Source of the DNA: Candidatus Daviesbacteria bacterium
GTDB lineage: Bacteria; Patescibacteriota; Microgenomatia; Daviesbacterales; UBA10151
Length of the DNA stretch: 64,000 nucleotides
Direction of reading: 5' to 3'
Assembly: GCA_016187035.1 (NCBI GenBank)
Contig: JACPKL010000005.1
Span: forward strand, 7,150 to 71,149
Position 1 is the first letter of the stretch; every line of letters begins with the position of its first letter. Under the pieces are notes generated by a model. It was not told where the DNA came from and searched no databases. It was given only the letters and a program-made list of their open reading frames with translations. The position numbers were made by a program, and so were the translations under genes. Positions 37,212 through 63,311 of this stretch are shown here, one piece after another.

Positions 37212-38141
37212 TTATTTTATTGCGTGGTAGTAAATCTGGTGCAAAAAGCGTGAGACATCCCAAGAAATTAAGAGGAAAATAATAAAGAAAACAAGATATC
37301 GAAGACAGGGTTGTTTTATCCTTTTGGAAATCCAAGCAAAGCAAAAATAGAAACCAACACCGCTTATGATAATTAATGGAATTACCATACTATATGAGGT
37401 AAGGGAGATTTGTAAATTATTTGATAAAGCTGTAGGTATTGGGGCAATTAGCAACCAAATTATAATTGGTTTATAGTCATTAGATGTTTTTATAATATAA
37501 ACTAATCCTAAAGATATTAAGATAGAATCGAATAAATACATCAGTCCCATTTCGGAAATTCTATTTTTTTGATAAAGATCTCCATCAAGGAATAAAGTTT
37601 GGAAGGAGAAATGATTGGAATAATTATTGAAGACAACATTAATGTAATTTGTTAATTTATTATGAGAAACTCTTAGTATTAAACTGCTTGAACCGTGTTC
37701 TCTTATCTGCTCATCTGTTAACCAAACAAGTTGTGGATTTTGAAATATACTCCTGTATGTAGTTTGCATAAAATTAGATGGAAATAAAATGAAAAGAATA
37801 CAAATTGAAATACTTACAAAAAAGATAATAGAATTCTGATATAAGTATTTTATTAAGAGAGTCATGATTATAAGGACAATAATTAACATTAGATTAACTG
37901 CAAATCCTTCTTTTGATAAAAAAATATGCCAGGGAGAAATTGAGAGGAATAAGGTTGAGAAAAGATGAATTAAGGTCCTTTGTTTAAATATTGTGTTTAT
38001 AAATAACCAAAATAAGACAATTGAAACAATATTTAAAGAAAAAGATGAGATATTAATAACCGGATCAATTTGAAGAAGGTAATATAATCTTATTAATACT
38101 GATATTAAGAGAATAATTAATATTAAGAAAATCTTTTTCAT
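37212..38141 (-). CDS. Polytopic membrane protein related to the core of the adjacent GT39-like enzyme but lacking its N-terminal catalytic loop
   Basis: SISPWHIFLSKEGFAVNLML parallels AFSPSQIIFSRGAWEANTSL in the 38138-39718 protein. 309 aa. 4-nt overlap with the upstream gene. Confidence 0.5.
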   Translation of the reverse strand: MKKIFLILIILLISVLIRLYYLLQIDPVINISSFSLNIVSIVLFWLFINTIFKQRTLIHLFSTLFLSISPWHIFLSKEGFAVNLMLIIVLIIMTLLIKYLYQNSIIFFVSISICILFILFPSNFMQTTYRSIFQNPQLVWLTDEQIREHGSSSLILRVSHNKLTNYINVVFNNYSNHFSFQTLFLDGDLYQKNRISEMGLMYLFDSILISLGLVYIIKTSNDYKPIIIWLLIAPIPTALSNNLQISLTSYSMVIPLIIISGVGFYFCFAWISKRIKQPCLRYLVFFIIFLLISWDVSRFLHQIYYHAIK

Positions 38142-39718: not shown

Positions 39719-39757
39719 CTGTTCTATTTTATTTTATATTGTTTTATATTAAAACTA

Positions 39758-41227: not shown

Positions 41228-42759
41228 TTAAGGATAAGGTCTTTTATATATTATTGTTTATTTTCTTATTTGCGATAATTTTACGTTTTCTTTATTTTCC
41301 TAAGGATATTTATTTTGGAATAGACCAAGCTCTTGGCTCTTTCGCGGTTAAAGAAATATTAGAAGGACACCCTAAGATAGTTGGACCTCCAACAACATTT
41401 CCAGGATTACGACACGGTGTTTTGTACTACTATTTATATACTCCTTTCTATTGGTTAGGCGGAGGGGATCCCAGTTTAGCTGCAGCTTTTTTGAGGGTAG
41501 CGAACGCACTTGGAGTTTTTTTAATATTTATAGTTGGAGCAATTTTATTTAATAAGTATGTAGGAATTATTGCTAGTTTATTGTTTGCTATTTCTTTTGA
41601 ACAAACTCAGTTTGCTCTATATTTTAATCATCCATCGTTAGCAGTTATAAGTGTTTTAATAATGTTCTTGGGATTAAGTATTTTAATCTTTAAGAAGAGT
41701 AAAATCGGTTTCATTATTGCTTTGTTAGGTTTAGGGTTATCGATTCAATTAGAGTTTATTCTAACTTATTTAATTGTTCCTTTCTTAATAACTTTAATTT
41801 GTTTTAGAAAATCATTTCCAAATATAAATCTTAAAATTTTTGTTTCAGGATTGTTTATTTTCCTTCTAACTATATCCTCATTTATTGCAGCAGAATTAAA
41901 ATTTAACTTCAGATCAGTTCATCTATTGCCAAAGCTTTTGTTTAGCGGTGAGCCAAAATCTTTAGTAAAAATAATTTCAACTTACGTCTTCGAAATAGGA
42001 CAAATAATTAAATTCAATTTGACTGGTTCATCTGAATTTGCTCCATTTGCGGGGATAATACTTCTTGTATTGCTTATCTTATTAAGTATTTCTAAGATAA
42101 AGAGGCAAGCTTTTTTCTTACAGATTTGGTTTTTCTCATTGTTAATAATTTATATAGTTGGGGGAGGAGAAAGTTTAAATGTAGACGTTTTACAATATCA
42201 TGGAAATGCAGGAGTTTCATCAAGTCTGATTATTTTTGTTTCCTATCTTCTTTGGCGTTTAGGTAAAAAAATAAAATTTCTAGCTTTTTTAGTGGTTATA
42301 TTAATAATAATTGCAAACTTCCGTCTGATAGAGAAAATTAATCCTTATGGAACTATGCCACAACTTAATGCTCAGTCATTTATGTTGTTATCGGATGAGA
42401 TAAAAGTATTAGATTATATTTATCAAGACGCAAATAATAAATCATTTGCTGTAAAAGCAATTTCTTTACCTTTTTATATTAATTCTACCTGGAGTTATCT
42501 TTTTGAATGGTATGGTAATAAAAAATATGGATACTTGCCAATTTGGGGTGGTAAAAATGCATCAGGGTATCCAGGAAATCTGTTAGTAGAAGATGCACAA
42601 GATAAATTACCTGACAAAAGATATTTAATTATAGAACCTACACGAGGTATTCCTGAACACCTAATTAATGATTATTTAAGAGAAGAAAATTATTTCTCTG
42701 ATAGTATTCAAGAGAAAGAGATAGGTCGTTTTAAAGTTCAAGTTAGGTTTAGAAAATAA
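41224..42759 (+). CDS. GT-C-type membrane glycosyltransferase-like protein (paralogue A)
   Basis: ILRFLYFPKDIYFGIDQALGSFAVKEIL. C-terminal domain with WSYLFEWYGNKKYGYLP. 511 aa. Confidence 0.6.
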   Translation: MIKDKVFYILLFIFLFAIILRFLYFPKDIYFGIDQALGSFAVKEILEGHPKIVGPPTTFPGLRHGVLYYYLYTPFYWLGGGDPSLAAAFLRVANALGVFLIFIVGAILFNKYVGIIASLLFAISFEQTQFALYFNHPSLAVISVLIMFLGLSILIFKKSKIGFIIALLGLGLSIQLEFILTYLIVPFLITLICFRKSFPNINLKIFVSGLFIFLLTISSFIAAELKFNFRSVHLLPKLLFSGEPKSLVKIISTYVFEIGQIIKFNLTGSSEFAPFAGIILLVLLILLSISKIKRQAFFLQIWFFSLLIIYIVGGGESLNVDVLQYHGNAGVSSSLIIFVSYLLWRLGKKIKFLAFLVVILIIIANFRLIEKINPYGTMPQLNAQSFMLLSDEIKVLDYIYQDANNKSFAVKAISLPFYINSTWSYLFEWYGNKKYGYLPIWGGKNASGYPGNLLVEDAQDKLPDKRYLIIEPTRGIPEHLINDYLREENYFSDSIQEKEIGRFKVQVRFRK

Positions 42760-42818
42760 TCTAAATTTTTTCTCGAATTTGGACAATAAAGGTACCGAAC
42801 TTTTTTTCATCCATTACT

Positions 42819-43113
42819 TTAGTAAAATATCCTTCCATAAGGATTAATAGTGAGAATAGAAAGCAGATTATTTAAAATAACAGCCAAAATAATTAGGGAA
42901 CCTAAAAAGATTTTACCTAAAGAGAGCAGTTTATCTATAGAATAAGCGCTAATAAGCAGTAAACAATATCCCCCATGGTTTATTTGCAAAAAGATAAAGA
43001 GCAAGTCCGAGATAAAATAATAAAACATCAGGGAAATAAAGGAAACGGATGATAATAGCTACAAGAAAGGTAAAAAGTAAACAAAATGAATTATGATGAA
43101 AAAATTTACCCAT
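42819..43113 (-). pseudogene. Fragment of a further GT-C paralogue (frameshifted)
   Basis: Manual translation from ATG 43113 gives MGKFFHHNSFCLLFTFLVAIIIRFLYFPDV..., like the N-termini of neighbouring GT-C genes. It stops after 54 codons and continues in another frame as the 69-aa ORF 42819-43028. Confidence 0.45.
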
Positions 43114-43208
43114 TATAAATTCTATTAATATTATTTTACACTGTTAGGAAGACTAAATTGACTAGTCAAATAAATTATGGCAAGATTTTCTAGCTGATAA
43201 CCTTACGA

Positions 43209-44729
43209 ATGAATAGAAATACATCACTAATTATTATAGCGATTCTGCTTGTTGGCATTTTGTATCGTCTGATGCTAACAGCTAATGGTAATTTTCTATT
43301 CAATATGGATAATGCTCGGGATTTTGTAGATGTTAGAGAAATGGTGGAGTTAAAAAAGTTAAGATTAACAGGGCCTACGTCTGCTATAGACGGTTTATAT
43401 AATGGTCCGCTTTGGTACTACTTTTTGGCTATTTCCTACACCTTTGGTAAAGGTGATCCTTATGGAGCTATTATTTTTGAAATAATCCTTTGGGCTATAG
43501 GCGGATATTTTTTATTGAAGTTAGTGGGAAACTTCGGGAGATATTTAGTAATACCAATTGGTTTAATATGGGTTGCTTCAAACTACATTGTTTTGACTAA
43601 CCTTTACTCTTTTAATCCAAATCCTGTTACCTTACTGACACCGCTTTTTATTTATGGTCTCTTTAGATATTCAAAGTCATTAAAAAGTATGTGGATTATA
43701 TTAACCTGGTCTTTAGCTGGAGCATTTTTTAATTTTGAAATGAATTTCGGGATATTTACTCCTTTGATAATTATTATTTCTTTATTTTTGCTAAATAAAA
43801 ACGCTTTTAAAGATAAGTATTTTTGGATAGGAGTAATAATTTTTACATTAACACTTTTACCTCAATTATTATTTGATTTGAGACATCAATTTATTATGAG
43901 TAAAGCAATTTTTAAATTTTTGTCAAATAATCAAAATGTTAAATTTAATTTGATTTCTAGGACACAAATCATTCTGCAAAGCTTCTTCAGTGTTTTTCAG
44001 GCAACCCTTATGAATAATAGACTAATTACATGGGCAGTAATATTACTGGCAATTCCAATAGTAAAGAATTTTTTGCGAAGAGGTAAAAAAGAATCAATAT
44101 TTATAGTCTCTCTCCTTTATATAGTAATTCCTTTTTTAGGATACTTAATCATTTCAGTAACTGTTAATCCTTGGCATTTAGGAGGACCAGCTGTTGCGCT
44201 TTTAATATTAATTGCTGTCATAATTTCTCGGTTATGGCAGATTAATATTACCGGTAGATTAGTATCATTGATATTATCTTTGAGTTTATTTTATTTCTCT
44301 GTATTTAATATATTAAATTTTTTTGTTAATGATTTAGGAAAAGAAAATATGGATCCGTCACTTTATAAAAATGAAATAAAGGCTATAGATTATGTTTACC
44401 AAAAAGCAAATGGTAAAAATTTTAAAGTCTATATATATCTACCTTCGGTTTATGATTACCCTTATCAATATTTATTTTGGTGGTATGGGCAAAAAAAATA
44501 TGGGTACATTCCTAAAGAATATGTTTACTCCCCTAATAAACCACAATATATACCAAGTCAAGAAAAGTTTCAGGGAGAAAAGAGTAATTTTTCTGAATTA
44601 GTATTTTTAATTAAAGAACCAGACCGGATTAAGATGAGGCAGGCATGGGAGAATGATTATAAAGATATGGAGATGTTATCTAAAGAAATGGTGGGTCCAA
44701 TAGAGGTGGAAGTGAGAAGAGAATTATGA
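43209..44729 (+). CDS. GT-C-type membrane glycosyltransferase-like protein (paralogue B)
   Basis: NMDNARDFVDVREMV first loop. C-terminal YQYLFWWYGQKKYGYIP matches paralogue A. 506 aa. Confidence 0.6.
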   Translation: MNRNTSLIIIAILLVGILYRLMLTANGNFLFNMDNARDFVDVREMVELKKLRLTGPTSAIDGLYNGPLWYYFLAISYTFGKGDPYGAIIFEIILWAIGGYFLLKLVGNFGRYLVIPIGLIWVASNYIVLTNLYSFNPNPVTLLTPLFIYGLFRYSKSLKSMWIILTWSLAGAFFNFEMNFGIFTPLIIIISLFLLNKNAFKDKYFWIGVIIFTLTLLPQLLFDLRHQFIMSKAIFKFLSNNQNVKFNLISRTQIILQSFFSVFQATLMNNRLITWAVILLAIPIVKNFLRRGKKESIFIVSLLYIVIPFLGYLIISVTVNPWHLGGPAVALLILIAVIISRLWQINITGRLVSLILSLSLFYFSVFNILNFFVNDLGKENMDPSLYKNEIKAIDYVYQKANGKNFKVYIYLPSVYDYPYQYLFWWYGQKKYGYIPKEYVYSPNKPQYIPSQEKFQGEKSNFSELVFLIKEPDRIKMRQAWENDYKDMEMLSKEMVGPIEVEVRREL

Positions 44730-50761: not shown

Positions 50762-51637
50762 ATGCCTCTTTATAACTGGTTCTTACCTCATAAGGAAACA
50801 CATAAAAAAGCTCGTCTAATTTCTTGGGAAGCTCTTTTGGTTTATGTACTTCTTTTTATCCTTCTTCAAGTAGGCTTTTCTATTATTAGTTACTCTAAAC
50901 CAGGGGTTTTAGGAATTACAGCCAATATTGACCAAAAAAAACTGATTGAGCTAACCAATATCGAAAGGCAAAAAAAAGGGTTATCCCCAGTTTCAGAAAA
51001 CGAAGCTTTAGATAAAGCAGCTAAATTAAAAGCAGAAAATATGTTTGCAGAAAATTATTGGGCTCATTTTTCTCCTTCAGGAAAAACACCATGGGATTTT
51101 ATCTTAGGTACTGGTTATCACTTTACTTTTGCAGGAGAGAATTTAGCTAAAAATTTTTATTCTTCTGATGAGATAGTGACTGCTTGGATGAATTCTCCAA
51201 CACATAGGGATAATTTACTTAACTCAAATTATAAAGATATCGGTATAGCTGTTATTGAAGGAAATTTAAATGGACAAAAAACTACTTTAATTGTTCAAGA
51301 GTTTGGCACTACAGAAGCGGTAGTAAGCAAACCATCTGTGAACATTCAAGGTAAAAATGTTAGTGTGCCTACTGAAGATATTATTAATAAACCACAGCTT
51401 AAGTTTGTGACTTCAGAGGTTAAACTGAATGCAAAAACAATTTTTGACCCTTATCTAGTTTCTAAAGTAGCTGGGTTTTCGGTAATTACATTTGTAATTG
51501 TTTTACTTGCTTTAGATATTTGGGTATTAAGAAAGAGGAGAGTATTTAGATTGTCTTCACATAACATTGCTCATATGACACTTTTATCTTTAGCAGCCGG
51601 TGGATTACTTTTAAGTAGTCCGGGAGTTATTTTGTGA
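50762..51637 (+). CDS. CAP/SCP (YkwD-like) domain protein with N- and C-terminal TM segments
   Basis: NIERQKKGLSPV...AENYWAHFSP...GENLAKNF...WMNSPTHRDNLL. Confidence 0.8.
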   Translation: MPLYNWFLPHKETHKKARLISWEALLVYVLLFILLQVGFSIISYSKPGVLGITANIDQKKLIELTNIERQKKGLSPVSENEALDKAAKLKAENMFAENYWAHFSPSGKTPWDFILGTGYHFTFAGENLAKNFYSSDEIVTAWMNSPTHRDNLLNSNYKDIGIAVIEGNLNGQKTTLIVQEFGTTEAVVSKPSVNIQGKNVSVPTEDIINKPQLKFVTSEVKLNAKTIFDPYLVSKVAGFSVITFVIVLLALDIWVLRKRRVFRLSSHNIAHMTLLSLAAGGLLLSSPGVIL

Positions 51638-51792: not shown

Positions 51793-52875
51793 ATGAAGGC
51801 AATAATTCCAACAGGAGGGCGTGGTACCAGAATGCGTCCTCTAACATTTTCTACCAATAAACATTTTATTCCAGTTGCCAACAAACCTTTGATTTTTTAT
51901 CCAATTGAAACCATTGCTGATACTGGTATTAAGGAGGTTGGAATTACTTATAACCCTGGTGGATTGGAAGAAGCCAAAGCTTATTTAGGAGATGGTAGCA
52001 AATGGGGTTTAAGTATTAGCTATATTTTACAAGAAAAGGCAGCAGGACTTGCAAATATTGTTCAGGTTTGTGAACAGTTTTTAAATGGAGATTCGTTTGT
52101 TTTCCACTTAGGGGATAACATGTTTGTTGATGGAATTAAAGATCAAGTCAAATACTTTGAAAAGAAGAAGCCTGATGGATTGGTAACTATGATTCATCAT
52201 AAAGAGAATAGAAGAATGGGAGTGCCTTTTTTTGATGATAACGGAAGGTTAATAAAATATGTAGAGAAACCAGAGAATCCTCCACATGATTTTGCTGTTC
52301 CTGGAGTGTATTTTGGTAATTCTAATTTTTTTAAGTGTTTTAAAGGAGAAAAAGCTATCAAGCCCTCAGAAAGAGGAGAATATGAAATTCCTGCTGCTTT
52401 TCAATGGCTAATTGATAATGGGTATAGAGTTAATGTTTTAGAATATAAAGGTAAATGGTTAGATCCAGGAAAATTTGATGATTGGATTTTGGCAAATCAT
52501 TATATTTTGGAAAATAAATTGATTGGGAATATTGAATGCCCATTAGATCAATCCTCAAAGATAGAAGGTAAGGTGGTTCTGGGAAAAGACTGTACGATTG
52601 TTAATACCAGAATTCATGGTCCAGTTATTATTGGAGATAATGTAGTAATCACAGATTCAGAGGTTGGTCCTTTTGTTTCTATTGCTCATGATTGTGAAAT
52701 AGTTGGGAGTATAGTTTCAAATAGTGTATTAATGAGTGGAGTAAGGGTAATAGATGTAAAAGAACACCCTGTGGACAATAGTTTGGTGGGGACTGATAGT
52801 GAAGTAATTGGTAAAAATGGCAGAGGAGCAACGACCTCCCTTTTTGTTGGAGAAAAATGTAAGATTCAGATATAA
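51793..52875 (+). CDS. rmlA: Sugar-1-phosphate nucleotidyltransferase, long RmlA-like form with C-terminal left-handed beta-helix
   Basis: KAIIPTGGRGTRMRPLTFSTNKHFIPV. C-terminal hexapeptide-repeat region. Heads the rmlBCD genes. Confidence 0.8.
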   Translation: MKAIIPTGGRGTRMRPLTFSTNKHFIPVANKPLIFYPIETIADTGIKEVGITYNPGGLEEAKAYLGDGSKWGLSISYILQEKAAGLANIVQVCEQFLNGDSFVFHLGDNMFVDGIKDQVKYFEKKKPDGLVTMIHHKENRRMGVPFFDDNGRLIKYVEKPENPPHDFAVPGVYFGNSNFFKCFKGEKAIKPSERGEYEIPAAFQWLIDNGYRVNVLEYKGKWLDPGKFDDWILANHYILENKLIGNIECPLDQSSKIEGKVVLGKDCTIVNTRIHGPVIIGDNVVITDSEVGPFVSIAHDCEIVGSIVSNSVLMSGVRVIDVKEHPVDNSLVGTDSEVIGKNGRGATTSLFVGEKCKIQI

Positions 52876-52885
52876 TCTGAATCTT
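52861..52885 (+). terminator. Weak hairpin spanning the rmlA-like stop codon
   Basis: AAGATTCAGA-TATAA-TCTGAATCTT (10-bp A/T-rich stem) followed by GCCTTTTGTCTTT. Confidence 0.25.
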
Positions 52886-52919
52886 GCCTTTTGTCTTTAG
52901 CAAAACGTGAGATTCAACT

Positions 52920-53924
52920 ATGAAGATTTTAGTGACTGGAGGAGCTGGATTTATAGGCTCAAACTTTATCCATTACTGGTTAGAAAATCATTCTCAGGAT
53001 CAAGTTGTTAATCTGGATGTTCTAACTTATGCCGGGCATTTGGAAAGCCTTAAGGATATAGAAGGAAACTCTAATTATAAATTCATTAAAGGAGATATTA
53101 CTGATGCCTCCACTGTCTCCTCTGCCATGCAGGGAATAGGTGTAGTTGTCCATTTTGCAGCCGAATCCCATGTTGACCGGTCGATTATTGATCCGATGCA
53201 GTTTATTAAGACAAACGTTTGCGGGACAGCGCGACTTCTGGAAGCTGCCTTAGATGCAAAAGTAAAGCATTTTCACCATGTGAGTACGGATGAATGTTTT
53301 GGTCAACTAGGTCCAAATGATCCACTCTTTAATGAGCAAACACCTTATGCACCACGAACACCTTATGCGGCCTCCAAGGCAGGATCAGACCATCTGGTAA
53401 GAGCGTATCATCAGACTTATGGTTTGCCAATAACTATTACCAATTGCTCAAACAATTTTGGTCCTTTTCAAGATCCAGAAAAATTAATACCACGGTTTAT
53501 TACCAATCTTCTTCAAGGTCAAAAAGCGCCATTAATGGGCCAGGGAGAAAATATCAGAGATTGGTTATATGTTAAAGATCACTGTCGGGCAATTGATATA
53601 GTTTTACAAAGAGGTAAGGTTGGTGAAACCTACTGCGTGGGAGGGGAAGAGAAAAGTAATTTAGAAGTTACCAAAAAAATTTTACAAATTTTAGGAATGG
53701 ATGAATCTTTTATTGAACTGGTTAAACATCGTTTAGGTCATGATTTTAGATATGCTATAGATTCTACTAAAATAGAACAGCTTGGATGGAAAGCGGAACA
53801 TAGTTTTGATGGGTGGTTGTCAGAAACTGTCAAGTGGTATCAAGGAAACCAGTGGTGGTGGAAAAGTTTAAAAGACAATAGACCAAACGTAGACAGAGTA
53901 GCCCAAAGAGGATATTATGAGTGA
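52920..53924 (+). CDS. rfbB: dTDP-glucose 4,6-dehydratase
   Basis: ILVTGGAGFIGSNF, STDECFG, YAASKAGSDHL. Confidence 0.93.
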   Translation: MKILVTGGAGFIGSNFIHYWLENHSQDQVVNLDVLTYAGHLESLKDIEGNSNYKFIKGDITDASTVSSAMQGIGVVVHFAAESHVDRSIIDPMQFIKTNVCGTARLLEAALDAKVKHFHHVSTDECFGQLGPNDPLFNEQTPYAPRTPYAASKAGSDHLVRAYHQTYGLPITITNCSNNFGPFQDPEKLIPRFITNLLQGQKAPLMGQGENIRDWLYVKDHCRAIDIVLQRGKVGETYCVGGEEKSNLEVTKKILQILGMDESFIELVKHRLGHDFRYAIDSTKIEQLGWKAEHSFDGWLSETVKWYQGNQWWWKSLKDNRPNVDRVAQRGYYE

Positions 53925-54465
53925 CTTTGTCCAAAAAACATCGATTGAAGGATTGCTAATTTTAAAAAGGCCAATTCATAAAGATGCGAGGGGCTTTTTT
54001 AGAGAAGTTTTCCATATTAATGAAATAGAGGAAACTTTAAATATTGAATTTAAGGGAGTGCAAATGAATCATGCTTTTTCAAAGCCAAAAGTTTTAAGAG
54101 GTATTCATGCGGAAAACTGGAATAAAATAATTTGTCCTGTTAATGGAGAAGTATTTATAGCAATAGTTGATATCAGACTTGATTCTTCTACTTTTACTAA
54201 AGTTGAAACTTTCACTATTAATGATCAAAATAGGATTGCTCTTTTTGTTTCCAAAGGTTTGGCCAATTCTTACTGTGTTACATCAGAAGGATCAGTAGAT
54301 TATATTTATTTAGTAGATGCTTATTATGATTGGACAGATACCAGGGCAATTGCATGGGATGATCCAGATTTAAAAATTAACTGGCCAGTGAAGAATCCAA
54401 TCATTTCAGAGAGGGATAGAAATAATCCTAAGTTAAGAGAACTTTTTCCAGGGAAATTCCCATGA
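53917..54465 (+). CDS. rfbC: dTDP-4-dehydrorhamnose 3,5-epimerase
   Basis: DARGFFREVF, VLRGIHAE. 182 aa cupin. Confidence 0.9.
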   Translation: MSDFVQKTSIEGLLILKRPIHKDARGFFREVFHINEIEETLNIEFKGVQMNHAFSKPKVLRGIHAENWNKIICPVNGEVFIAIVDIRLDSSTFTKVETFTINDQNRIALFVSKGLANSYCVTSEGSVDYIYLVDAYYDWTDTRAIAWDDPDLKINWPVKNPIISERDRNNPKLRELFPGKFP

Positions 54466-55343
54466 AGAACGTACTAATTTTTGGGGGTAGTGGTTTAGTT
54501 GGCTCTAAATTTAACAATTTATTAAAAAAAGAATTTGAGATTATTTCTCCTCCTGCTTCAGAGGTAGATATTTTGAATCAAGATCAACTAATGAAAATCT
54601 TAGAAGAGGAGAATCCTTCTTGGGTAATTAACTTTGCTGCTATTACAGATGTGGAAGGATCAGAAAAGGAGAATGGAGATAAAGACGGGTTGTGCTTTAG
54701 GGTAAACGCAATAGGTGCTCAAAATGTTGCTCAAGCTTGTAAGAACTTCAACAAAAGATTAATCCATATTTCCACAGAATATGTGTTTGATGGTACTAAG
54801 TCAGATAATCCTTATACAGAAGAAGATATTCCTAATCCTATAAACTGGTATGGGCAAACTAAACTCTTTGGTGAAGATTTTGTTTTAGAAAGTGGTTGTG
54901 AAGCAATTATCATGAGAATTTCTATGCCTTTTACATCTCATTATAAATTAAAAAAAGATATAGCCAGGTTCTTTTTAGAACAACTAAAGGCTGGAAATAA
55001 TATTAAGGCAGTTGAAGACCAGAGGATTACACCTACATTGGTAAACGATATAGTCAATGCTTTAAGAGTATTTTTAGAAAGTCAAAGTAGTGGTATTTAT
55101 CATGTTTCAAGTAGGGATTCTGTTACCCCTTTGGAATTTGCTAAAACTATTGCTAAAACTTTCCGTCTAAACTATTCATTAATTAATTCAATCTCTTTAG
55201 ACGAATTTAGTAAAAATAAAAAAGCAAAGCTTTTGAAATTTTCTTGGTTAAACCCAACAAAATTTGAGAAAGAATTTGGAGATGATATATTGCATTTAGT
55301 TGAAGAGAGTTTAGTAATTCTCAAGCAAGAGGTTCTATTGTAA
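54462..55343 (+). CDS. rfbD: dTDP-4-dehydrorhamnose reductase
   Basis: ISTEYVFDG, YGQTK. 293 aa. Confidence 0.88.
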   Translation: MKNVLIFGGSGLVGSKFNNLLKKEFEIISPPASEVDILNQDQLMKILEEENPSWVINFAAITDVEGSEKENGDKDGLCFRVNAIGAQNVAQACKNFNKRLIHISTEYVFDGTKSDNPYTEEDIPNPINWYGQTKLFGEDFVLESGCEAIIMRISMPFTSHYKLKKDIARFFLEQLKAGNNIKAVEDQRITPTLVNDIVNALRVFLESQSSGIYHVSSRDSVTPLEFAKTIAKTFRLNYSLINSISLDEFSKNKKAKLLKFSWLNPTKFEKEFGDDILHLVEESLVILKQEVLL

Positions 55344-55386
55344 AACGGGGTTGACCTTCAACTTCAAATTAGATATATTAATTCAA

Positions 55387-56400
55387 ATGGCAAATAAAAG
55401 AGCATTTATTACGGGTATTTCAGGACAAGATGGTTCTTATTTAACAGAATTTCTTTTAGACAAAGGATATGAAGTGGCAGGATTAGTCAGGAGAAATGCT
55501 GTATTGGATTTAGGTAATATTAATCAATTAAGAGAGGAAGTTAAAATTTATTATGGAGATTTGCAATCACCTGAATCAATTGCTTTAGCTCTCTACGATT
55601 TTAAACCAGATGAAATTTATAATTTAGCTGCTCTATCTTCTCCTTTAGCCTCGTTTTCTGATAAAGTTGCCACCATTATGGTGACAGGAGTAGGAGCTCT
55701 CCATGTTTTTGAAAGAGCTAAACAAATTGTGCCTGAAGCTAAAATCTATCAGGCTTCAACATCAGAAATGTTTGGTGCACCTAAACAGGTTCCCCAAAAT
55801 GAAGATACCTCTCTTGCTCCAGCAAACCCCTATGCAGCGGCCAAAGAATTTGCCCACAGGATGGCGCAAATCGCCAGACATGATAAAAAACAACCGCAAT
55901 TTATTACTTGCGGAATTCTTTTTAATCATGAAAGCCCCAGACGCGGTTTGAATTTTGTAACCAGAAAAATTACAGCTAGCGTTGCCTGTATTAAAAACAA
56001 CAGGAAAGAAGGAATACCTTTAAATGAAATCGGTGAACCAATTGTCCAAAATGGAAAAGTCAAATTAGGGGATCTGGATGCAAGAAGAGACTGGGGTTAT
56101 GCCCCGGATTATGTTAAGGCAATGTGGATGATGCTGCAGCAAGAGAAGGCAGATGATTTTGTGATTGCCACAGGCGAGGTCCATACTGTCCAGGAATTTG
56201 TTGAAGAAGCCTTTAGTGTGGTAGGTCTTGACTGGAAAGACCACATAGAAACAGATTCTCATTTCGTACCTCCGATACAAACTGGACCACTTTGCGGGGA
56301 TGCTGCCAAAGCTAAAAAAATATTAGGATGGGGAGCAGAGACAAAATTCAAAGATCTTGTTAGAATTATGGTTCATGCAGATCTTGCTAAATTCTCCTGA
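55387..56400 (+). CDS. gmd: GDP-mannose 4,6-dehydratase
   Basis: AFITGISGQDGSYL, STSEMFG, YAAAK, NHESPRRG. Start moved to the ATG (MANKRAF); the tracked ORF begins at an upstream TTG. Confidence 0.9.
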   Translation: MANKRAFITGISGQDGSYLTEFLLDKGYEVAGLVRRNAVLDLGNINQLREEVKIYYGDLQSPESIALALYDFKPDEIYNLAALSSPLASFSDKVATIMVTGVGALHVFERAKQIVPEAKIYQASTSEMFGAPKQVPQNEDTSLAPANPYAAAKEFAHRMAQIARHDKKQPQFITCGILFNHESPRRGLNFVTRKITASVACIKNNRKEGIPLNEIGEPIVQNGKVKLGDLDARRDWGYAPDYVKAMWMMLQQEKADDFVIATGEVHTVQEFVEEAFSVVGLDWKDHIETDSHFVPPIQTGPLCGDAAKAKKILGWGAETKFKDLVRIMVHADLAKFS

Positions 56401-56421: not shown

Positions 56422-57609
56422 ATGAAAAAAATAGTTAGTGTAATTTTGCCTACCTTTAACGAAGAAGCTAATATTGAGAAGACTTTAAAAAGAGTTTTAG
56501 AACAAGAAAAGGATTTACCTGGTTGGCAAATTGATGTGGTAATTGTAGATGATATTCGGTCATCTGATAATACTGATAAAATAATACAAAAACTATCTAG
56601 AAAAGATAACAGAATATATCTAATAAAAGCTGAACCGGGCTTAGGGGTAAGTCTGATAGAAGGTCATAAGTTTGCTACTGCACATCTTCATCCTGATATA
56701 TTAGCTCAACTTGATGCTGACGGACAGGTTGAGCCCGATGTTTTAGTGAGACTGGTTAAAGGTATTGAAGAAGGTTTTGATTTTGTGATTGGATCTAGAT
56801 TAATCTCAGGCGGGCGGAACAAGCTAAGTTTATCAAGACGATTATTTACGTTAGGATCATCACTGTTTTGTAGATTGGTAATGGGACCAACAAACATTAA
56901 AGAATTCACAAATTCTGCTAGAGCATTTACCCCGAAAATTTTTAAAAAAATAAATTTAGATAGATTACCCTGGAGAGAAAAAACCTTTATCATCCAACCC
57001 GCTTTCTTGAATGAGATGATTTTAGCAGGTGCTAAATATAAAGAAGTACCACTGATATTTAAAAACAGATTAGAAGGGTATTCAAAAAATAAAGTCTTTA
57101 ACTATACATATGACGTGATTTCTTATTGTTTAGATGTTAGGCTTCATAAATGGGGAGTTAATATTTCTCTTTATAAACTTAGTAGAAGGGCTAAAACGTT
57201 AGTTAAATTCAGTTTAGTAGGGGCAGCAGGAACAACAGTAGACTTTTTATTTTATAAAATATTTATAAATTATTTTGGATTTCCTCCAGCTACTTCGAAA
57301 GGTTTTTCAGCAGAAATTGCAATTATAAATAACTTCTTTCTTAATAATTTTTGGACCTTTAGATATAGAAAGACTAAAACTAATCTTTGGCAAAAGTTAG
57401 GTATATTCAACCTAGTCTCTTTAGGAGGATTAATAATAGCTGTTTTAATAGTTAAACTGCTCCATAATATTTATGGAGATGGGTTTATTAATTTGTTTGG
57501 TAAGTTAATTGCTTATAATAACTTTTACTTTTTTGCAACAATTATACCTGTAATGATTTGGAATTTTACTATTAACCATTTTATTACCTGGCGTCATCAA
57601 GAGGATTAA
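56422..57609 (+). CDS. Dpm1/GtrB-like GT2 polyprenyl-phosphate sugar synthase fused to a GtrA-like domain
   Basis: VSVILPTFNEEANI, VVIVDD, DADGQ (GT2). From about aa 262 (nt 57205) FSLVGAAGTTVDFLFYKIF...AIINNFFLNNFWTF is the GtrA 4-TM pattern. Confidence 0.75.
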   Translation: MKKIVSVILPTFNEEANIEKTLKRVLEQEKDLPGWQIDVVIVDDIRSSDNTDKIIQKLSRKDNRIYLIKAEPGLGVSLIEGHKFATAHLHPDILAQLDADGQVEPDVLVRLVKGIEEGFDFVIGSRLISGGRNKLSLSRRLFTLGSSLFCRLVMGPTNIKEFTNSARAFTPKIFKKINLDRLPWREKTFIIQPAFLNEMILAGAKYKEVPLIFKNRLEGYSKNKVFNYTYDVISYCLDVRLHKWGVNISLYKLSRRAKTLVKFSLVGAAGTTVDFLFYKIFINYFGFPPATSKGFSAEIAIINNFFLNNFWTFRYRKTKTNLWQKLGIFNLVSLGGLIIAVLIVKLLHNIYGDGFINLFGKLIAYNNFYFFATIIPVMIWNFTINHFITWRHQED

Positions 57610-58775
57610 TTAAATAAAGTTAGGTTAGGAATAGGAGCCATATTCTGCAATATAAAATTTTGAGCATACAGATAAATTGCTAATAATATAATAGGTAAAA
57701 TAATTTTAAATTCTTTACTAGTTAATGTTTTTTCAAACGCAATTAAAATAAATGGACCAATCGGTAAAAGATATCTAGAAATATCTCTGTGTGCAACAAA
57801 TGTAGCAGCTAACAGATAAGTTAGTGTGAAAAAAGCTAATGGATAGACCTTCCTTTTTAGAAGTGTAATTCCCCCTAAAAAGCCAAAAATATAAATAAAA
57901 ATTATATCTTCTAACCAAATATCCCCAACCCAGAATTGTGATTTGTTGAAAACTTGAAAAGGAGGAAATGTGAGATGAATATTATCTCCGCTATGGAAGT
58001 AAGCCCAGAAATCTTGATAGGTTTGACTATATAAATAAAATATTCCCAATAATCCTAGAGGGATAAAGATTATTGGAAAGTACTTTAAGTAATCAATCCA
58101 AGCTTTCTTAAGTCCGATGTCTTTTATTAGTAAATAAAATCTGAAATGTACATAAAGTATTAAAGCAATAAATAGTAGAATACCGGGGGGTCTAGTAATT
58201 TGAGCGAATAGCCCTGCAATGGCTGCAAGGATAATATCTATGAAATGTTTAGTTTCCTCAAATCTTATGAAAAAATATAACGCAGTAATAATTAAAAAAA
58301 TAAATAAAGGTTCTGAAGAGCCAACACTATGAACAATTAACCATCTGGCAGGTAGAATCAAAAAAAGAACGCTTAAAAATAGGGGATGCCCACTAAGTTT
58401 CAGGTTTTTAACTAAAAAATAGAATGATATTGACGAAGCGATCGTAAAAAACACAGATACAAATAACATTGATTTTAAATAACCTAATAGAAAAGCGAAC
58501 GTACTTATCAAAATAGAATACCCAGGAAAATGTGAGGCAAAATAAATAGCAGGAAGTGATTGAGGGAGCGAAGCGATTAGATTTGGATTATAAAAAGTTT
58601 TTGCAATGATGATATACTCCAACCCGTCAAAATTTCTATAGATTGTGGAAAATCCCTCTTTGAAGGATAAACCCCAGAAATTTGGTACTGATAAAAGGTG
58701 TGGCAACCAAACAAAAAGCGTTAGAGCAAAAGTGCAAACTATTAAAATAACAATATCTTTAATTGTCTTGCTCAT
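57606..58775 (-). CDS. GT-C-like polytopic membrane protein
   Basis: 389 aa, about 11 TM helices. First loop YRNFDGLEYIIIAKTFY. Convergent 4-nt overlap with the GT2-GtrA gene. Confidence 0.5.
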   Translation of the reverse strand: MSKTIKDIVILIVCTFALTLFVWLPHLLSVPNFWGLSFKEGFSTIYRNFDGLEYIIIAKTFYNPNLIASLPQSLPAIYFASHFPGYSILISTFAFLLGYLKSMLFVSVFFTIASSISFYFLVKNLKLSGHPLFLSVLFLILPARWLIVHSVGSSEPLFIFLIITALYFFIRFEETKHFIDIILAAIAGLFAQITRPPGILLFIALILYVHFRFYLLIKDIGLKKAWIDYLKYFPIIFIPLGLLGIFYLYSQTYQDFWAYFHSGDNIHLTFPPFQVFNKSQFWVGDIWLEDIIFIYIFGFLGGITLLKRKVYPLAFFTLTYLLAATFVAHRDISRYLLPIGPFILIAFEKTLTSKEFKIILPIILLAIYLYAQNFILQNMAPIPNLTLFN

Positions 58776-58825: not shown

Positions 58826-61006
58826 ATGAAAACTCAAGCCCTGTCAGTTTTTTTTCCTTCTGTTAACGAAGAAGGCAATATTGAGATAACGGTTGGAAAG
58901 GCAGATAAAGTCTTAAAAAGATTAGATTTAGATTATGAAATTATCGTTGTAAACGATGGTTCAACAGACCATACTCGCACTATTGCTGAAAACTTAGCCA
59001 AGAAGAACTCAAAAATTAGAGTAATAAATCATCAAAGGAATTTAGGTTATGGAGAGGCTCTAAAGTCAGGATTTTATAATGCTAAATATGACACTATAGT
59101 TTATACAGATGGAGATGGGCAATTTGATTTTTCAGAGGTAGTAAAATTTTTAGAAAATATTGAGGATCATGATTTAGTTATAGGTTACAGAATTAAAAGA
59201 CAAGATTCATTTTTAAGGAAACTTTTTGGTAAAGGATGGAGATTATCTCTCTTAATCTTTTTTGGTTTAAGGCTTAAAGACGTGGACTGTGGATTTAAAA
59301 TGATCAAAAGAAAAGTTTTAGAAACTATCCCTCATCTGGAATCTCAAAGAGGAGCTATGATTAATGCGGAGTTAGTAATAAAGACAAAAAAATTCGGATT
59401 TAACGTTACTCAAGTTGGAGTTAATCACTATCCACGTTTAGCCGGTAAACCAACTGGCGCCAATATAAGAGTAATTATAAAATCTTATCTAGATTTAATT
59501 AGATTATGGTGGAAATTAAAGAATCAAAAGTTGTTATTTATGGCTTTCCTGTTAATCCTATCTTTAGCTACGTTTTTAAGGTTTTTTAAATTATCTGAGT
59601 ATATGACTTTCTTAGGAGATGAAGGAAGAGATGCCTTAGTTGTGAAAGATATGTTAACGAATTATCACTTTCCTTTAATTGGTCCTCCTACATCAGTAGG
59701 AAATATTTATCTCGGACCCCTTTATTATTATATGATGGCTTTTTCTATGATGATTTTCTGGCTAAATCCGATAGCTGCAGCTATGATGAATGCTTTAGTT
59801 GGAGTAGCGGTTGTAGTCTTAATTTACTGCTTAGGGAAAATTTGGTTTAACAAAGCGGCTGGTTTAATAGCGTCTTTCTTTTATGCAATTTCTCCGATAA
59901 CAATAATATATTCTAAATCATCTTGGAATCCGAATCCTGCTCCATTTTTTGCACTGATCTCAATGTTGGGACTTTATAAAGTAAATAAAACCGGTAATTT
60001 TTTATGGTTAATATTAACTGGAATTATGGTTGCAGCTGCTTTGCAGATGCATTATTTGGCCCTAATTCTAATACCTATTTGTGCAGTTATTTGGTTATAT
60101 GAAATACTCTTTAGGATTCAAAGAAAAGAACAAATTAGACACTTTTTCATGGGGACATCTTTAGGAATTTTATTCTTTCTTCTTGTGATGTCTCCTCTAT
60201 TTTGGTTTGATTTAAGGCATAATCTCCTAAATTACCGGGGAATTATAGAACTAATGTCAAGTGACAGTGCTATAAAGGGGAATTTATTTAATAATTTATT
60301 AAAAATTCCTAATCTTTATTCCTATAATTTGATAGGAAGGTATATTGCTGGAGAAAATCTTATCTTGACTTGGATTTTATCCTTAGTTATTTTAATACCA
60401 TTTGCTGCATCAATTTACCAAAGAGTTAGATCCAATAAAATTATTTGGCCTTACTTTGTTTTAGGAGTATGGTTATTTGTTGGTCTTCTAGGTTTATCTT
60501 TTTATCAGCAAGGTATTTACGACCACTATTTAGGGTTTATGAATCCTGTCCCTTTTTTGCTTTTAGGATCACTAGCAACAGTGAAATATAAAAAAAAGAT
60601 TACTAAAGTTTTATTATTAAGTCTAGTTCTGCTTCTAGCTTATGTTAATTTACAGAAAAATCCTTTAAACAACAAACCCAACAATCAACTTAAAAGAACT
60701 CAAGATGTTGCGCGGTTTGTAATTAATAAAACAGAAGGAAAGGATTTTAATTTTGCATTAATCGCTGAAAGTAATTACGATGCAGCTTATCAATTCTATC
60801 TTGATCAGTATGATCATAAACCAAAACAAGTTCCGTTCGATATCACAGATCAATTATTTGTAGTTTGCGAAGATTCTGTTTGCGACCCTACACATAATGC
60901 TAAATATGAAGTAGCAGCTTTTGGTTGGTCAAAAATTGATTGGATGGAGGAATATTCAGGTGTTAAACTTTACAAACTTATACATAATCCAAGCGGCAAG
61001 CCATAA
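58826..61006 (+). CDS. Fusion of a GT2 polyprenyl-phosphate sugar synthase and a GT-C membrane transferase-like domain
   Basis: N-terminus LSVFFPSVNEEGNI, IIVVNDGSTDHT, TDGDGQFD (GT2, aa 1-230). From about aa 236 (nt 59531) a polytopic domain with FLGDEGRDALVVKDM first loop and a soluble C-terminal domain. 726 aa. Confidence 0.75.
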   Translation: MKTQALSVFFPSVNEEGNIEITVGKADKVLKRLDLDYEIIVVNDGSTDHTRTIAENLAKKNSKIRVINHQRNLGYGEALKSGFYNAKYDTIVYTDGDGQFDFSEVVKFLENIEDHDLVIGYRIKRQDSFLRKLFGKGWRLSLLIFFGLRLKDVDCGFKMIKRKVLETIPHLESQRGAMINAELVIKTKKFGFNVTQVGVNHYPRLAGKPTGANIRVIIKSYLDLIRLWWKLKNQKLLFMAFLLILSLATFLRFFKLSEYMTFLGDEGRDALVVKDMLTNYHFPLIGPPTSVGNIYLGPLYYYMMAFSMMIFWLNPIAAAMMNALVGVAVVVLIYCLGKIWFNKAAGLIASFFYAISPITIIYSKSSWNPNPAPFFALISMLGLYKVNKTGNFLWLILTGIMVAAALQMHYLALILIPICAVIWLYEILFRIQRKEQIRHFFMGTSLGILFFLLVMSPLFWFDLRHNLLNYRGIIELMSSDSAIKGNLFNNLLKIPNLYSYNLIGRYIAGENLILTWILSLVILIPFAASIYQRVRSNKIIWPYFVLGVWLFVGLLGLSFYQQGIYDHYLGFMNPVPFLLLGSLATVKYKKKITKVLLLSLVLLLAYVNLQKNPLNNKPNNQLKRTQDVARFVINKTEGKDFNFALIAESNYDAAYQFYLDQYDHKPKQVPFDITDQLFVVCEDSVCDPTHNAKYEVAAFGWSKIDWMEEYSGVKLYKLIHNPSGKP

Positions 61007-61011: not shown

Positions 61012-61767
61012 ATGAAAGAATTAACCATAATTATACCTTCATATAATGAGTCAGCTAATTTAAAAAGGGGAGTATTAGAAGGAGTATCAAGCTATTTAGA
61101 AAAACTAAAGATTAATTATGAAGTATTGATAGTCGATGATGGTTCTTCGGACAATTCAGTAGAGTTAGTTAAAAAGTATATTTCCAAAATGGGGACTTCC
61201 TCTAGAGGTGAAAATCTTAAATTAATACAAAATAAACACGGCGGCAAAGCTAAGGCAGTGCTGACTGGGATGGAAAAAGCAAGCGGGGAAACAGTCTTGT
61301 TTACAGATATGGATCAAGCTACCCCTATAAACCAATTAGAAAAATTTATTCCTAAGTTCAAAGAAGGATACGATATTGTAATTGGATCAAGAAAAGGAAG
61401 AAAAGGGGCGCCTATGATTAGGAAAATAGCAGCGTGGATCTTTTCGATCTTAAGAGGATTAATTTTAGGACTTCCTTTTAAAGATACTCAATGTGGTTTT
61501 AAAGCCTTTTCTAAGAATTCAGTCAATAAAATACTTCCTAAGATTAGAAGTGAATGGGGTGAATTACACTTCAGAGGAGGGGCAGTAAATGCAGGATTTG
61601 ATGTTGAGCTTCTTTACCTATCTAAAAAGTATGGTCTAAAAATCGCAGAGGTTGGAGTAGAATGGAATTATGTTGATACAGAAAGAGTGCAAGTTGTTAA
61701 AGATGCTTTAGCAGCAATTTATGATATGTTGAGAATCAGAATGAATGATTTCCGTGGTAAGTATTAA
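61012..61767 (+). CDS. GT2 glycosyltransferase (dolichyl/polyprenyl-phosphate beta-glucosyltransferase-like)
   Basis: LTIIIPSYNESANL, VLIVDDGSSDNS, TDMDQATP. 251 aa. Confidence 0.8.
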   Translation: MKELTIIIPSYNESANLKRGVLEGVSSYLEKLKINYEVLIVDDGSSDNSVELVKKYISKMGTSSRGENLKLIQNKHGGKAKAVLTGMEKASGETVLFTDMDQATPINQLEKFIPKFKEGYDIVIGSRKGRKGAPMIRKIAAWIFSILRGLILGLPFKDTQCGFKAFSKNSVNKILPKIRSEWGELHFRGGAVNAGFDVELLYLSKKYGLKIAEVGVEWNYVDTERVQVVKDALAAIYDMLRIRMNDFRGKY

Positions 61768-61811: not shown

Positions 61812-63311
61812 GTGAAACTTATTTTGAAACACAAAGCTAAGATTGCACTTTTTTTAATTTTAATTGTTTTCTATTTTACTCTAAGATTACCTAATTTAAC
61901 TTTACAGCCTATCTTTGCTGATGAGGCTATTTATATCAGATGGGCTCAAGTTATGAAATCTGAACCTACCTTAAGATTCTTACCTTTGACTGATGGGAAA
62001 ACACCTCTTTTTATGTGGATGATGATACCTTTTTTTAAAGTATTTAAAGATCCCCTTTTTGCTGGTAGGTTTTTATCCGTATTTAGTGGTTTTTTTACTC
62101 TTTTGGGGGTTTATTTCTTAACCAAGAAAGCTTTTAACTTAAAAGCTGCATTCTGGGCAGCTTTATTTTATGTAATTACACCATATACAGTTTTCTTTGA
62201 TCGGATGGCTTTAGTAGATTCTATGTTATCCGCTTTTACTATTTGGATAATATATTTTGCTATTTGGTTAGTTGAAAGTATCAGACTAGATCTAGCAATG
62301 ATTTTAGGATATTTAACGGGAGGAGCGATTTTAACCAAGACCCCCGGCTTGATTAATATTTTAATACTACCTCTTTCTGTTGTGGCCTTTTTTGGAAAAA
62401 GAGGGGTGAAGAGATCATTTCTAAAATTAGTAACCTTTTGGTTAGTAGCGATAAGTATAGCTCTGGTGATGTATAATATGCTTAGGTTAGGTCCTGAATT
62501 TAATAAATTATCAACAAGAAATACAGATTATGTATTTTCACCACTAGAACTCATTGGGAGACCTCTTGATCCATTCATCCCGCATTTTCATGACATGCAA
62601 GATTGGTTTCCAAAGCTTTTTACTATACCTACATTATTATTAATAATCATGGGGATTTTCTATTCTTTGAAAAAATTTAACAGTAAAGCCTTAGTTATTT
62701 TGTTTTGGCTAGTGATTCCTATGCTTTCATCGATGGTATTTCTAAAAACCTTTACAGCTAGATATTTATTAACTTCTGTTGCCCCTCTATTAACTTTTGC
62801 AGGTTTCGGACTTGCCAAATTAAACGATAAATTGAAATTAAAAAGTTATATTAAAATTTTACTATCTCTGCTTATCTTTCTACCACTATCTTTAAATTTT
62901 GATTATCAACTGATTAATAATCCTCCTCCGTCTGATTTACCTAAGGAAGAAAGAAAGGGATATTTTGAAGATTGGACAGCCGGATATGGATTTAAAGAGA
63001 TTGCTAATTTTTTAGTAGAAAAAAGCAAAGAGAGGAATGTAGTTGTCGGAACTGATGGATTTTTTGGAACCCTTCCAGACGGAATTCAAATCTATCTTGA
63101 TAAATCCAAAATTTCTATTGTAGGAAGTTCAGCTACTATTTCAGCTCAAATTAGAAATGCTGCCATAGGTAATCTCACTTTTTTTGTTGGTAATAAAAAG
63201 AGCTTGCAAGGAAGTTTAAAAAATGTGCTTCTGATTAAGGAGTTTCCAAAAGTTAAGCCAGAAGATAGTTCTTTGGAGGATGCCACAGTTTTATATCAGG
63301 TTTTACCATGA
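61812..63311 (+). CDS. GT39/GT83 (ArnT-like) membrane glycosyltransferase
   Basis: PIFADEAIYIRWAQVM first-loop motif. 499 aa polytopic with a C-terminal soluble domain. Confidence 0.7.
   Translation: MKLILKHKAKIALFLILIVFYFTLRLPNLTLQPIFADEAIYIRWAQVMKSEPTLRFLPLTDGKTPLFMWMMIPFFKVFKDPLFAGRFLSVFSGFFTLLGVYFLTKKAFNLKAAFWAALFYVITPYTVFFDRMALVDSMLSAFTIWIIYFAIWLVESIRLDLAMILGYLTGGAILTKTPGLINILILPLSVVAFFGKRGVKRSFLKLVTFWLVAISIALVMYNMLRLGPEFNKLSTRNTDYVFSPLELIGRPLDPFIPHFHDMQDWFPKLFTIPTLLLIIMGIFYSLKKFNSKALVILFWLVIPMLSSMVFLKTFTARYLLTSVAPLLTFAGFGLAKLNDKLKLKSYIKILLSLLIFLPLSLNFDYQLINNPPPSDLPKEERKGYFEDWTAGYGFKEIANFLVEKSKERNVVVGTDGFFGTLPDGIQIYLDKSKISIVGSSATISAQIRNAAIGNLTFFVGNKKSLQGSLKNVLLIKEFPKVKPEDSSLEDATVLYQVLP

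Follow-up and report, generated by a model that had tools for sequence, protein, structure and literature searches.

That a synthase of glycosyltransferase family 2 (GT2) and a transferase of the GT-C class cooperate through a lipid-linked sugar is textbook knowledge, as are the two enzyme classes themselves. In the three-component systems described in PMC11127046 and PMC10821137 (GtrA/GtrB/GtrC of Shigella phage, ArnC/ArnE-F/ArnT, and the streptococcal GacI/J-GacK-GacL and PgfS/PgfM), a GT2 makes the polyprenyl-phosphate-sugar inside the cell and a GT-C transfers the sugar outside. Here, we analyze a gene at positions 58826-61006 of a 64,000-nucleotide stretch of Candidatus Daviesbacteria DNA (contig JACPKL010000005.1, positions 7,150 to 71,149; hereafter, the window), whose single product joins a GT2 half, closest to ArnC and GtrB in both sequence and fold, to a GT-C half that matches ArnT well. 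The components of the three-component systems are separate, whereas the window protein is one polypeptide. GtrB-type enzymes, according to PMC11127046, carry a small anchor of one or two transmembrane (TM) helices, whereas the GT2 half in the window has none. In addition, the fused pair has no dedicated small flippase gene beside it, and the one GtrA-like domain among the scanned ORFs of the window sits on another GT2 (56422-57609).

The paired GT2/GT-C operons of Bacillus subtilis include ykcC-ykcB and ykoT-ykoS. The adjacent GT2 and GT-C genes of B. subtilis csbB-yfhO and Listeria gtlA/gtlB, as presented in PMC5836110, have the same organization as the split state of the gene pair that we describe below in Microgenomates. 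In the Firmicutes operons the genes are separate and the GT2s have TM helices, whereas the Microgenomates pairs show an ATGA overlap, an anchor-less GT2 and repeated fusion. A fusion of another kind is known from mycobacteria, where the membrane domain D1 and the PPM synthase domain D2 of Ppm1 are fused in M. tuberculosis, the corresponding Ppm2 and Ppm1 of M. smegmatis are split yet interacting, and the synthase alone suffices for activity (PMC3485146). The likeness lies in an anchor-less synthase that is encoded next to a membrane partner and is fused to it or split from it depending on the species; the Ppm1 partner, however, is a six-TM, non-GT-C protein located N-terminal to the synthase, whereas the partner in the window is a GT-C, that is, of the consumer class, and is C-terminal. 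The eukaryotic type-II DPM synthase (DPM1 with DPM2/DPM3) and the archaeal type-III PfDPMS share with the window protein a GT2 core with a DxDxQ motif, an acceptor-loop Arg and interface helices, but their partner is a small two-TM protein or their own four-TM domain rather than a glycosyltransferase. GtrB, ArnC, yeast Dpm1 and PfDPMS all have a C-terminal TM anchor, and in lacking one the window GT2 resembles type-II DPM1; human DPM1 has no TM helices and depends on its membrane partner DPM3 (PMC5526996).

We consider it probable that the gene is a natural fusion of two neighbors that, in Patescibacteria of the Microgenomates type, make up a single functional module. The fusion of a GT2 synthase gene with a GT-C gene is itself real and no artifact. 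The parts of the fused gene are as follows:

58826..61006, + strand: the whole fused gene, 726 amino acids (aa) plus stop codon, with an ATG start (from the list of open reading frames)
58826..59464, + strand: cytoplasmic GT2 catalytic domain with a GT-A fold, of the polyprenyl-phosphate glycosyltransferase type, aa 1-213 (PF00535, PDB sequence and fold matches)
59108..59122, + strand: D95-G-D97-G-Q99, the donor/metal motif of the GT2 half, which aligns to DADLQ of ArnC, GtrB and PfDPMS
59465..59518, + strand: C-terminal amphipathic interface helix of the GT2 half, aa 214-231, ending ...IRVIIKSYLDLIRLWWKL (AlphaFold2 helix, mean hydropathy 0.73)
59519..59527, + strand: fusion junction, the three-residue kink K232-N233-Q234 between interface helix and TM1 (DSSP on the model and alignment of fused and split junctions)
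59528..60655, + strand: GT-C transmembrane domain, aa 235-610, with 11 predicted TM helices and the N-terminus inside (PF13231, PF02366 and the model of the C-terminal half)
59615..59632, + strand: G264-D-E-G-R-D269 in the first external loop, candidate catalytic acid residues (conservation)
59921..59935, + strand: S366-W-N-P-N370, a family-specific motif in a predicted external loop (conservation)
60656..61003, + strand: extracytoplasmic alpha/beta C-terminal domain, aa 611-726 (AlphaFold2 models)
60866-60883, + strand: invariant C681/C686 pair in the C-terminal domain (81/81 orthologues)

The preliminary description of this DNA had reported a single open reading frame (ORF) with the full GT2 signature that continues without a stop into a polytopic domain, and this holds in every part. 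The ORF has no internal stop codon, and its motifs are located at aa 14-19 (NEEGNI), 42-50 (VNDGSTDHT), 94-101 (TDGDGQFD) and 264-269 (GDEGRD). Judged against the gathering cut-off of each Pfam model, the protein matches PF00535 (Glycos_transf_2; aa 7-167, 94.2 bits vs. 23.3, E 1e-26), PF13231 (PMT_2; aa 298-460, 40.7 bits vs. 26.1) and PF02366 (PMT; 28.2 bits vs. 22.7). The junction DNA (59471-59593) is unambiguous and in frame, and the full-length AlphaFold2 model has a pLDDT of 87.7 and a pTM of 0.81.

An assembly, sequencing or frameshift error that joins two separate genes had been named as an outcome that would undo the finding, and it deserves consideration because most relatives are split with overlapping stop and start codons, so that one indel error could look like a fusion. 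A search of a collection of 5.8 billion proteins returned an NCBI entry 100% identical to the fused protein (annotated 'glycosyltransferase [Candidatus Daviesbacteria bacterium]') and at least 120 full-length homologues (707-740 aa, 63-71% identity, 97-100% query coverage). Every one of these carries PF00535 and PF13231, and they come from several data sources and, with few exceptions, from separate contigs. Moreover, the fused genes group in a coherent clade that shares a conserved junction (LWWKLKDQK), and their junction differs from the split state by a length change of 17 nt, not by a 1-nt slip. Since the read-through recurs in these homologues and in 20 of 80 species-representative genomes, we rejected the artifact explanation, to which we assign a practically negligible probability. 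Both halves evolve under constraint: in an alignment of 50 sequences, 161 columns are invariant, among them W228/W229, where the GT2 half ends, and the loop with GDEGRD.

By fold, motifs and nearest structures, the N-terminal half is a predicted lipid-phosphate synthase of the DPMS/GtrB/ArnC type. The best PDB sequence matches of its ~230 residues are ArnC (9hwj, E 1e-13), GtrB (5eke/5ekp) and Pyrococcus DPMS (5mlz), and the nearest PDB folds are again ArnC, GtrB and DPMS (E 1e-12 to 1e-9), which fill Foldseek ranks 1-25, with soluble GT2s behind at about 1e-7. In PfDPMS, Asp91 and Gln93 of this motif hold the metal together with the diphosphate of the donor, and the acceptor loop contributes Arg202, which closes the site (PMC5526996); in the window protein, R204 aligns with the Arg of the ArnC loop. 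Residue conservation was scored over 19 fused and 58 split copies of the GT2. D97 and D152 are present in all of them (19/19 and 58/58), while D44, Q99 and R204 are found in 19/19 fused and in 54-56 of the 58 split copies (Q99 in 56/58). D95 is kept in all split copies and in 17/19 fused ones; in the two exceptions, L048 (5185-7413) and L058 (5230-7437), which are the scorable members of a second fusion type with a longer junction, Pro replaces the first Asp of the DxD motif (IPADNQ / VPSDNQ). In a distant GC-rich fused relative (P0155, 736 aa), the N-terminal domain has no PF00535 match and the PMT_2 half is intact. Orthology to a named enzyme (PgfS, ArnC, the halobacterial dolichyl-phosphate hexose transferase or AglJ) found no support in NCBIfam, where the best scores were 54-70 bits against equivalog cut-offs of 325-529; thus, the fusion is not an orthologue of any named member of the three-component systems, and, all equivalog cut-offs being missed by a wide margin, no sugar specificity can be transferred to the GT2 half.

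The GT2 half contains two amphipathic helices (129-146 and 214-231), and neither the AlphaFold2 helices nor hydropathy gave it a TM anchor or hydrophobic span of its own. Its split orthologues (230-250 aa) likewise end straight after the second interface helix. Because it lacks an anchor, the GT2 presumably depends on its GT-C partner for membrane placement.

The preliminary description had also proposed a GT-C-like domain with a GDEGRD first loop and a soluble C-terminal domain, and had noted that the absence of a GT-C fold would count against it. When residues 231-726 were modeled on a more diverse alignment, the resulting structure (pLDDT 94.1, pTM 0.93) matched GT-C enzymes throughout Foldseek ranks 1-44 (AglB, ArnT, Pmt4, STT3, ALG12, PglB, ALG9, AftB, Emb and AftD), with 1e-7 for AglB and 6e-7 for ArnT (TMq 0.62 / TMt 0.58), and a sequence profile of this half (alignment A2) reaches yeast Pmt1 (6p25) at E 1e-5. 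In the full-length model, helix 214-231 is followed by the kink and then by TM1 at 235-253, and in both models residues 611-726 form the alpha/beta domain, for which Pfam at E up to 10 returned a chance-level match only. Pfam found neither a MIR nor a PMT_4TMC domain; together with the C-terminal domain being without a family match, this means that the protein should not be filed as a PMT (GT39).

Conservation in the GT-C half was scored over 81 orthologues. D265, R268 and D269 of the first loop are invariant (81/81) and E266 is kept in 79/81, and the GDEGRD residues are also invariant or nearly so in alignment A2, which spans 27-53% identity. W367, N368, P369 and N370 are kept in 81/81 and S366 in 80/81, and H409, Y568, C681 and C686 in 81/81. 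TM segments were assigned by reading the model helices against hydropathy and charge: short inside loops contain 12 K/R per 31 residues and short outside loops 1 per 27. It is a rule for GT-C enzymes that conserved polar motifs face outside, and under this topology the polar family-invariant motifs lie on the outer side, namely D265-E-G-R-D269 in loop 1, S366-W-N-P-N370, Q407/H409, D566-H-Y568 and C681/C686 in the C-terminal domain. The two catalytic centers are thus predicted, from the topology of the model and the K/R counts, to sit on opposite membrane faces, as the preliminary description had suggested might be seen in an AlphaFold model.

These data bear on a different view of the C-terminal half, in which it would be a mere membrane anchor or activator for the GT2, or a flippase-associated protein. 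There are precedents for an anchoring partner in DPM3 for human DPM1 and in domain D1 of M. tuberculosis Ppm1 (PMC5526996, PMC3485146); the GT2 has no TM segment of its own, and the C-terminal half weakly matches TIGR03663, 'flippase activity-associated protein Agl23' (E 1e-8, 34.7 bits vs. a cut-off of 126). However, D265/R268/D269, SWNPN, H409, D566-H-Y568 and the Cys pair of the external domain are conserved down to about 30% identity, a constraint on the outer face beyond an anchor's needs; the fold matches to catalytic GT-Cs extend over about 500-580 aligned columns; and in P0155 the GT-C half is intact while the GT2 half has decayed. We regard a purely anchoring or flippase-associated role as quite unlikely. 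The invariant GT-C residues and the retention of the PMT_2 half in P0155 argue that the GT-C half has a conserved function of its own and is more than an anchor.

The relationship between fused and split forms was examined in relatives of each half, for which 1.84 billion cluster representatives were searched exhaustively. Full-length fusions make up only about ten of the clusters at 50% identity. For residues 231-726, the relatives are mostly separate proteins of about 500 aa (27-53% identity); for residues 1-231, they are separate proteins of 227-250 aa (45-62% identity) whose sequence stops directly behind the second amphipathic helix. We then used 80 loci from species-representative genomes, fetched by three family-specific peptide patterns (the SWNPN motif among them; at least 551 relatives exist), and scored their six-frame ORFs with purpose-built hidden Markov models (HMMs) of each half; the orthologous GT-C scored 597-667 bits. 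All informative titles of these loci belong to Microgenomates-type Patescibacteria (Daviesbacteria, Woesebacteria, Amesbacteria, Collierbacteria and Blackburnbacteria). Many other loci (L003, L007, L009, L011-L016, L020, L026, L066 and others) are titled 'uncultured Gammaproteobacteria', 'Alphaproteobacteria' or 'Clostridia'; these labels look unreliable, as gene order and a GT-C-half identity of 39-63% to the Daviesbacteria protein are typical of Microgenomates.

The 80 loci plus the window comprise 21 fused cases (20 and the window), 59 split cases with an adjacent GT2 and one cut by a contig edge, so that adjacent separate genes are the majority state, a point absent from the preliminary description. 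In 59/59 split loci the GT-C is directly preceded by a same-strand GT2, which is the orthologue of the GT2 half in 57/59 (234-374 bits). The called ORFs overlap in 45/59, most commonly with an apparent distance of -19 nt, a value that arises from the ORF caller choosing an upstream alternative start codon. At the DNA level, an ATGA stop/start overlap was found in 6/6 inspected split Daviesbacteria-type loci (L018, L019, L021, L022, L025 and L030), four of which had been called at -19 and resolve to ATGA and two of which had been called directly at -4. Such an overlap is a classic arrangement for translational coupling. One locus (L017, 591-2369) has a fused-type ORF of 592 aa in which only the last 116 residues of the GT2 are present; it starts 590 nt inside the contig and may be an N-terminally truncated or frameshifted copy.

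Alignment of the junctions indicates how the genes could have become joined. The split GT2 ends in ...LWWKIR* and the split GT-C starts with the conserved motif M-x-x-W-I-K-K-N-R/K-x-E, or more narrowly M-I-x-W-I-K-K-N-R-x-E (e.g., L018 5989-6030, L019 5938-5980 and L025 5953-5995), a cytoplasmic segment just before TM1 that might be a docking site for the anchor-less GT2. The junction in the window reads ...LWWKLK-NQK-LLF..., and the number of residues from the WW pair to the conserved FLR of TM1 is that of a complete GT2 C-terminus joined to a GT-C lacking six residues at its start. As the fused linker has exactly the length expected after such an event, we infer that the Daviesbacteria fusion arose through the loss of 17 nt (a net 3n+2 deletion), which removed the stop codon together with codons one to six of the GT-C gene. 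The Daviesbacteria fusions are essentially one clade in neighbor-joining trees of both halves. Three other fused proteins (L048, L052 and L058), with a junction 10 residues longer (WWQLKQEI[L/M]VEQGRAVFRWEA), fall among split Amesbacteria-type sequences in the trees, and P0125 (Candidatus Beckwithbacteria, PIS09412.1), P0126 and P0128 each have a further distinct junction; P0126 retains the GT-C motif (..DFIKRNRIE..) whose first six residues the Daviesbacteria fusion has lost. On the evidence of these separate clades with different junction sequences, the pair has been fused independently in several Microgenomates lineages.

Unrelated fusions of GT2s to GT-Cs also turned up. In Ktedonobacteraceae, P0264/P0270 (HEU5378195.1, 1145 aa) combine GtrA, GT2, PMT_2 and YkcB_C, i.e., all three Gtr-type components in one chain; P0223 (673 aa) has the reverse order, PMT_2 then GT2; and P0226 and P0214 consist of GT2 and PMT_2. 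These proteins differ from the window fusion in that they belong to other GT-C subfamilies, with a different domain order or an added GtrA, and they represent unrelated events. Joining a synthase to a GT-C is therefore a recurrent evolutionary event. Database annotations of the fusion proteins are generic ('glycosyltransferase', 'glycosyltransferase family 39 protein' or 'hypothetical protein'). No description of a GT2-GT-C fusion was found in the full-text literature searched, even though public databases have contained such proteins for years; absence there is no proof of absence. The only fusions discussed in PMC10821137, PMC11127046, PMC5836110 and PMC4973528 are GacJ-GacI, Alg13/14 and Ppm1 D1/D2.

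Taken as one module, the protein would work as follows. At the inner membrane face, the GT2 half would charge polyprenyl phosphate with the sugar of a nucleotide sugar, the lipid-linked sugar would be flipped across the membrane, and the GT-C half would move the sugar from this polyprenyl-phosphate-sugar donor to an extracytoplasmic acceptor, probably consuming what its own GT2 half has made. In the ancestral split state, the anchor-less GT2 would dock on its GT-C partner; the deletion in the Daviesbacteria clade would then have made the link covalent, with the last amphipathic helix of the GT2 running straight into TM1 of the GT-C. Such a fusion would fix a 1:1 stoichiometry and proximity, and would not by itself move the donor across the membrane.

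The last point concerns a claim of the preliminary description that is not supported as worded, namely that covalent fusion implies donor channeling. The product must still be flipped, and neither a flipping route nor a flippase was found for it. In its fuller form, this proposal holds that the GT2/GT-C pair, fused or split, passes the lipid-linked sugar along the GT-C TM domain and so performs synthesis, flipping and transfer without a separate flippase. The constant adjacency of the GT2 in 59/59 split loci and the repeated fusion of the pair would fit it, and a pTM of 0.81 for the whole protein is a hint that the two domains have a defined arrangement. It would also fit that no stand-alone GtrA, Wzx or ArnE/F-type flippase gene was detected among the Pfam-scanned ORFs of the window, where several ORFs were unscanned and three of those scanned had no match at threshold. 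On the other hand, a GtrA-like TM domain lies 1.2 kb upstream, on another GT2, with a polytopic 389-aa protein in between. It likewise speaks against channeling that the GT-C enzymes whose structures are known draw their donor from the outer leaflet. We judge channeling improbable; tethering of an anchor-less synthase to its partner is the simpler reading. If the self-sufficient machine were nevertheless true, a single polypeptide would be a minimal reconstitutable system for the long-standing unsolved question of how polyprenyl-phosphate monosaccharides flip.

It is also conceivable that the two halves work in different pathways, the GT2 product being used by other GT-Cs and the GT-C half using another donor, with fusion reflecting no more than co-expression and membrane targeting. 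The window contains three GT2 synthase-like genes, the fusion included, and at least seven GT-C-type genes (starts at 33964, 38138, 39758, 41224, 43209, 58826 and 61812), so that many-to-many relations are possible. Nevertheless, the GT-C of every split locus has an adjacent same-strand GT2 that is this very orthologue in all but two of the 59, while the paralogues vary in number and position, and independent fusions always join the same two orthologues. This alternative is accordingly unlikely, and we retain the reading of synthase and transferase as one module.

Several points weigh against that reading. With the NCBIfam equivalog cut-offs missed, no named orthologue gives the specificity of the enzyme. 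The GT2 domain is altered or eroded in L048, L058 and P0155, and coupling is therefore not obligatory everywhere. Donors could be shared, given the two further GT2 synthase-like genes and at least six further GT-C paralogues in the window. Docking of the split partners is deduced from adjacency and fusion, and the relative placement of the two domains rests, indirectly, on the pTM of 0.81.

The neighborhood of the fused gene contains the following features:

38138-39718, - strand: tandem paralogous GT-C-type gene, PMT_2 above the Pfam cut-off
39758-41227: tandem paralogous GT-C-type gene, PMT_2 above the Pfam cut-off
41224-42759 and 43209-44729: tandem paralogous GT-C-type genes, recognized by the purpose-built GT-C HMM
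50762-51637, + strand: 291-aa protein, immediately upstream of the genes for nucleotide sugars, with a domain of the CAP / cysteine-rich secretory protein family
51793-56400: RmlA-like, RmlB, RmlC, RmlD and Gmd genes
56422..57609, + strand: GT2 with a GtrA/DPMS TM domain, a PfDPMS-like 'type III' architecture (PF00535 + PF04138), 1.2 kb upstream of the fusion
57606..58775, - strand: polytopic membrane protein of 389 aa between the GT2-GtrA gene and the fusion, no family match
61012..61767, + strand: stand-alone GT2 of 251 aa without TM segments, a paralogue 31% identical to the GT2 half
61812..63311, + strand: stand-alone PMT_2-type GT-C of 499 aa, a distant paralogue of the GT-C half

The GtrA-like domain of 56422..57609, a candidate flippase, is the only one among the scanned ORFs of the window. 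At the corresponding upstream position, the Daviesbacteria loci have an ORF of the same size (about 395 aa), recognized by its match to the GT2 HMM, and a gap of matching size is present at the position of 57606-58775. The 389-aa protein encoded at the latter position found no match in Pfam, NCBIfam or PDB sequences, and its first loop ('NFDGLEY') looks GT-C-like by eye. Downstream of the pair, most loci have a GT2 ORF comparable to the one at 61012..61767 in length and in score (about 100 bits). The preliminary description had likened the GT-C half to the stand-alone GT-C genes nearby; the gene at 61812 is indeed of the PMT_2 type, but it is a distant paralogue with a weak local match only. 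We also considered whether 61012-61767 and 61812-63311 are a recently split twin of the fusion, and rejected this, the GT2s being 31% identical and the GT-Cs sharing only a weak match of 67 residues.

The Rml and Gmd genes are suggestive of rhamnose or 6-deoxyhexose metabolism nearby. Their presence does not tie them to the fused enzyme, and the sugar handled by the fusion cannot be read from them. The region 38000-44000 has a GC content of 0.275-0.289, compared to about 0.35 elsewhere in the window, and may be a variable or horizontally acquired glycosylation island. Corynebacterial and mycobacterial lipoglycans are assembled outside the cell from lipid-linked monosaccharides, and the cluster in the window looks like one for a glycan that may similarly be built largely outside.

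The fusion is a fused variant of the known module of GT2 synthase and GT-C transferase, whose novelty lies in the single chain and the anchor-less synthase; it introduces no new principle, and the fusion itself reveals no new chemistry. What is new is genetic evidence of the Rosetta-stone type, in which one anchor-less GT2 and one GT-C are nearly always adjacent, mostly overlapping and fused several times. This near-constant adjacency and the repeated fusion of the same two proteins suggest, without proving it, a physical partnership of synthase and transferase, as opposed to two enzymes connected solely by a lipid intermediate that diffuses freely. The protein offers a natural 1:1 single-chain construct for studying the coupling of synthesis, flipping and transfer and the structure of a synthase-transferase assembly. 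Finally, for Daviesbacteria and other Microgenomates, with their essentially uncharacterized envelopes, it points to a very large surface-glycan system built on GT-C enzymes.

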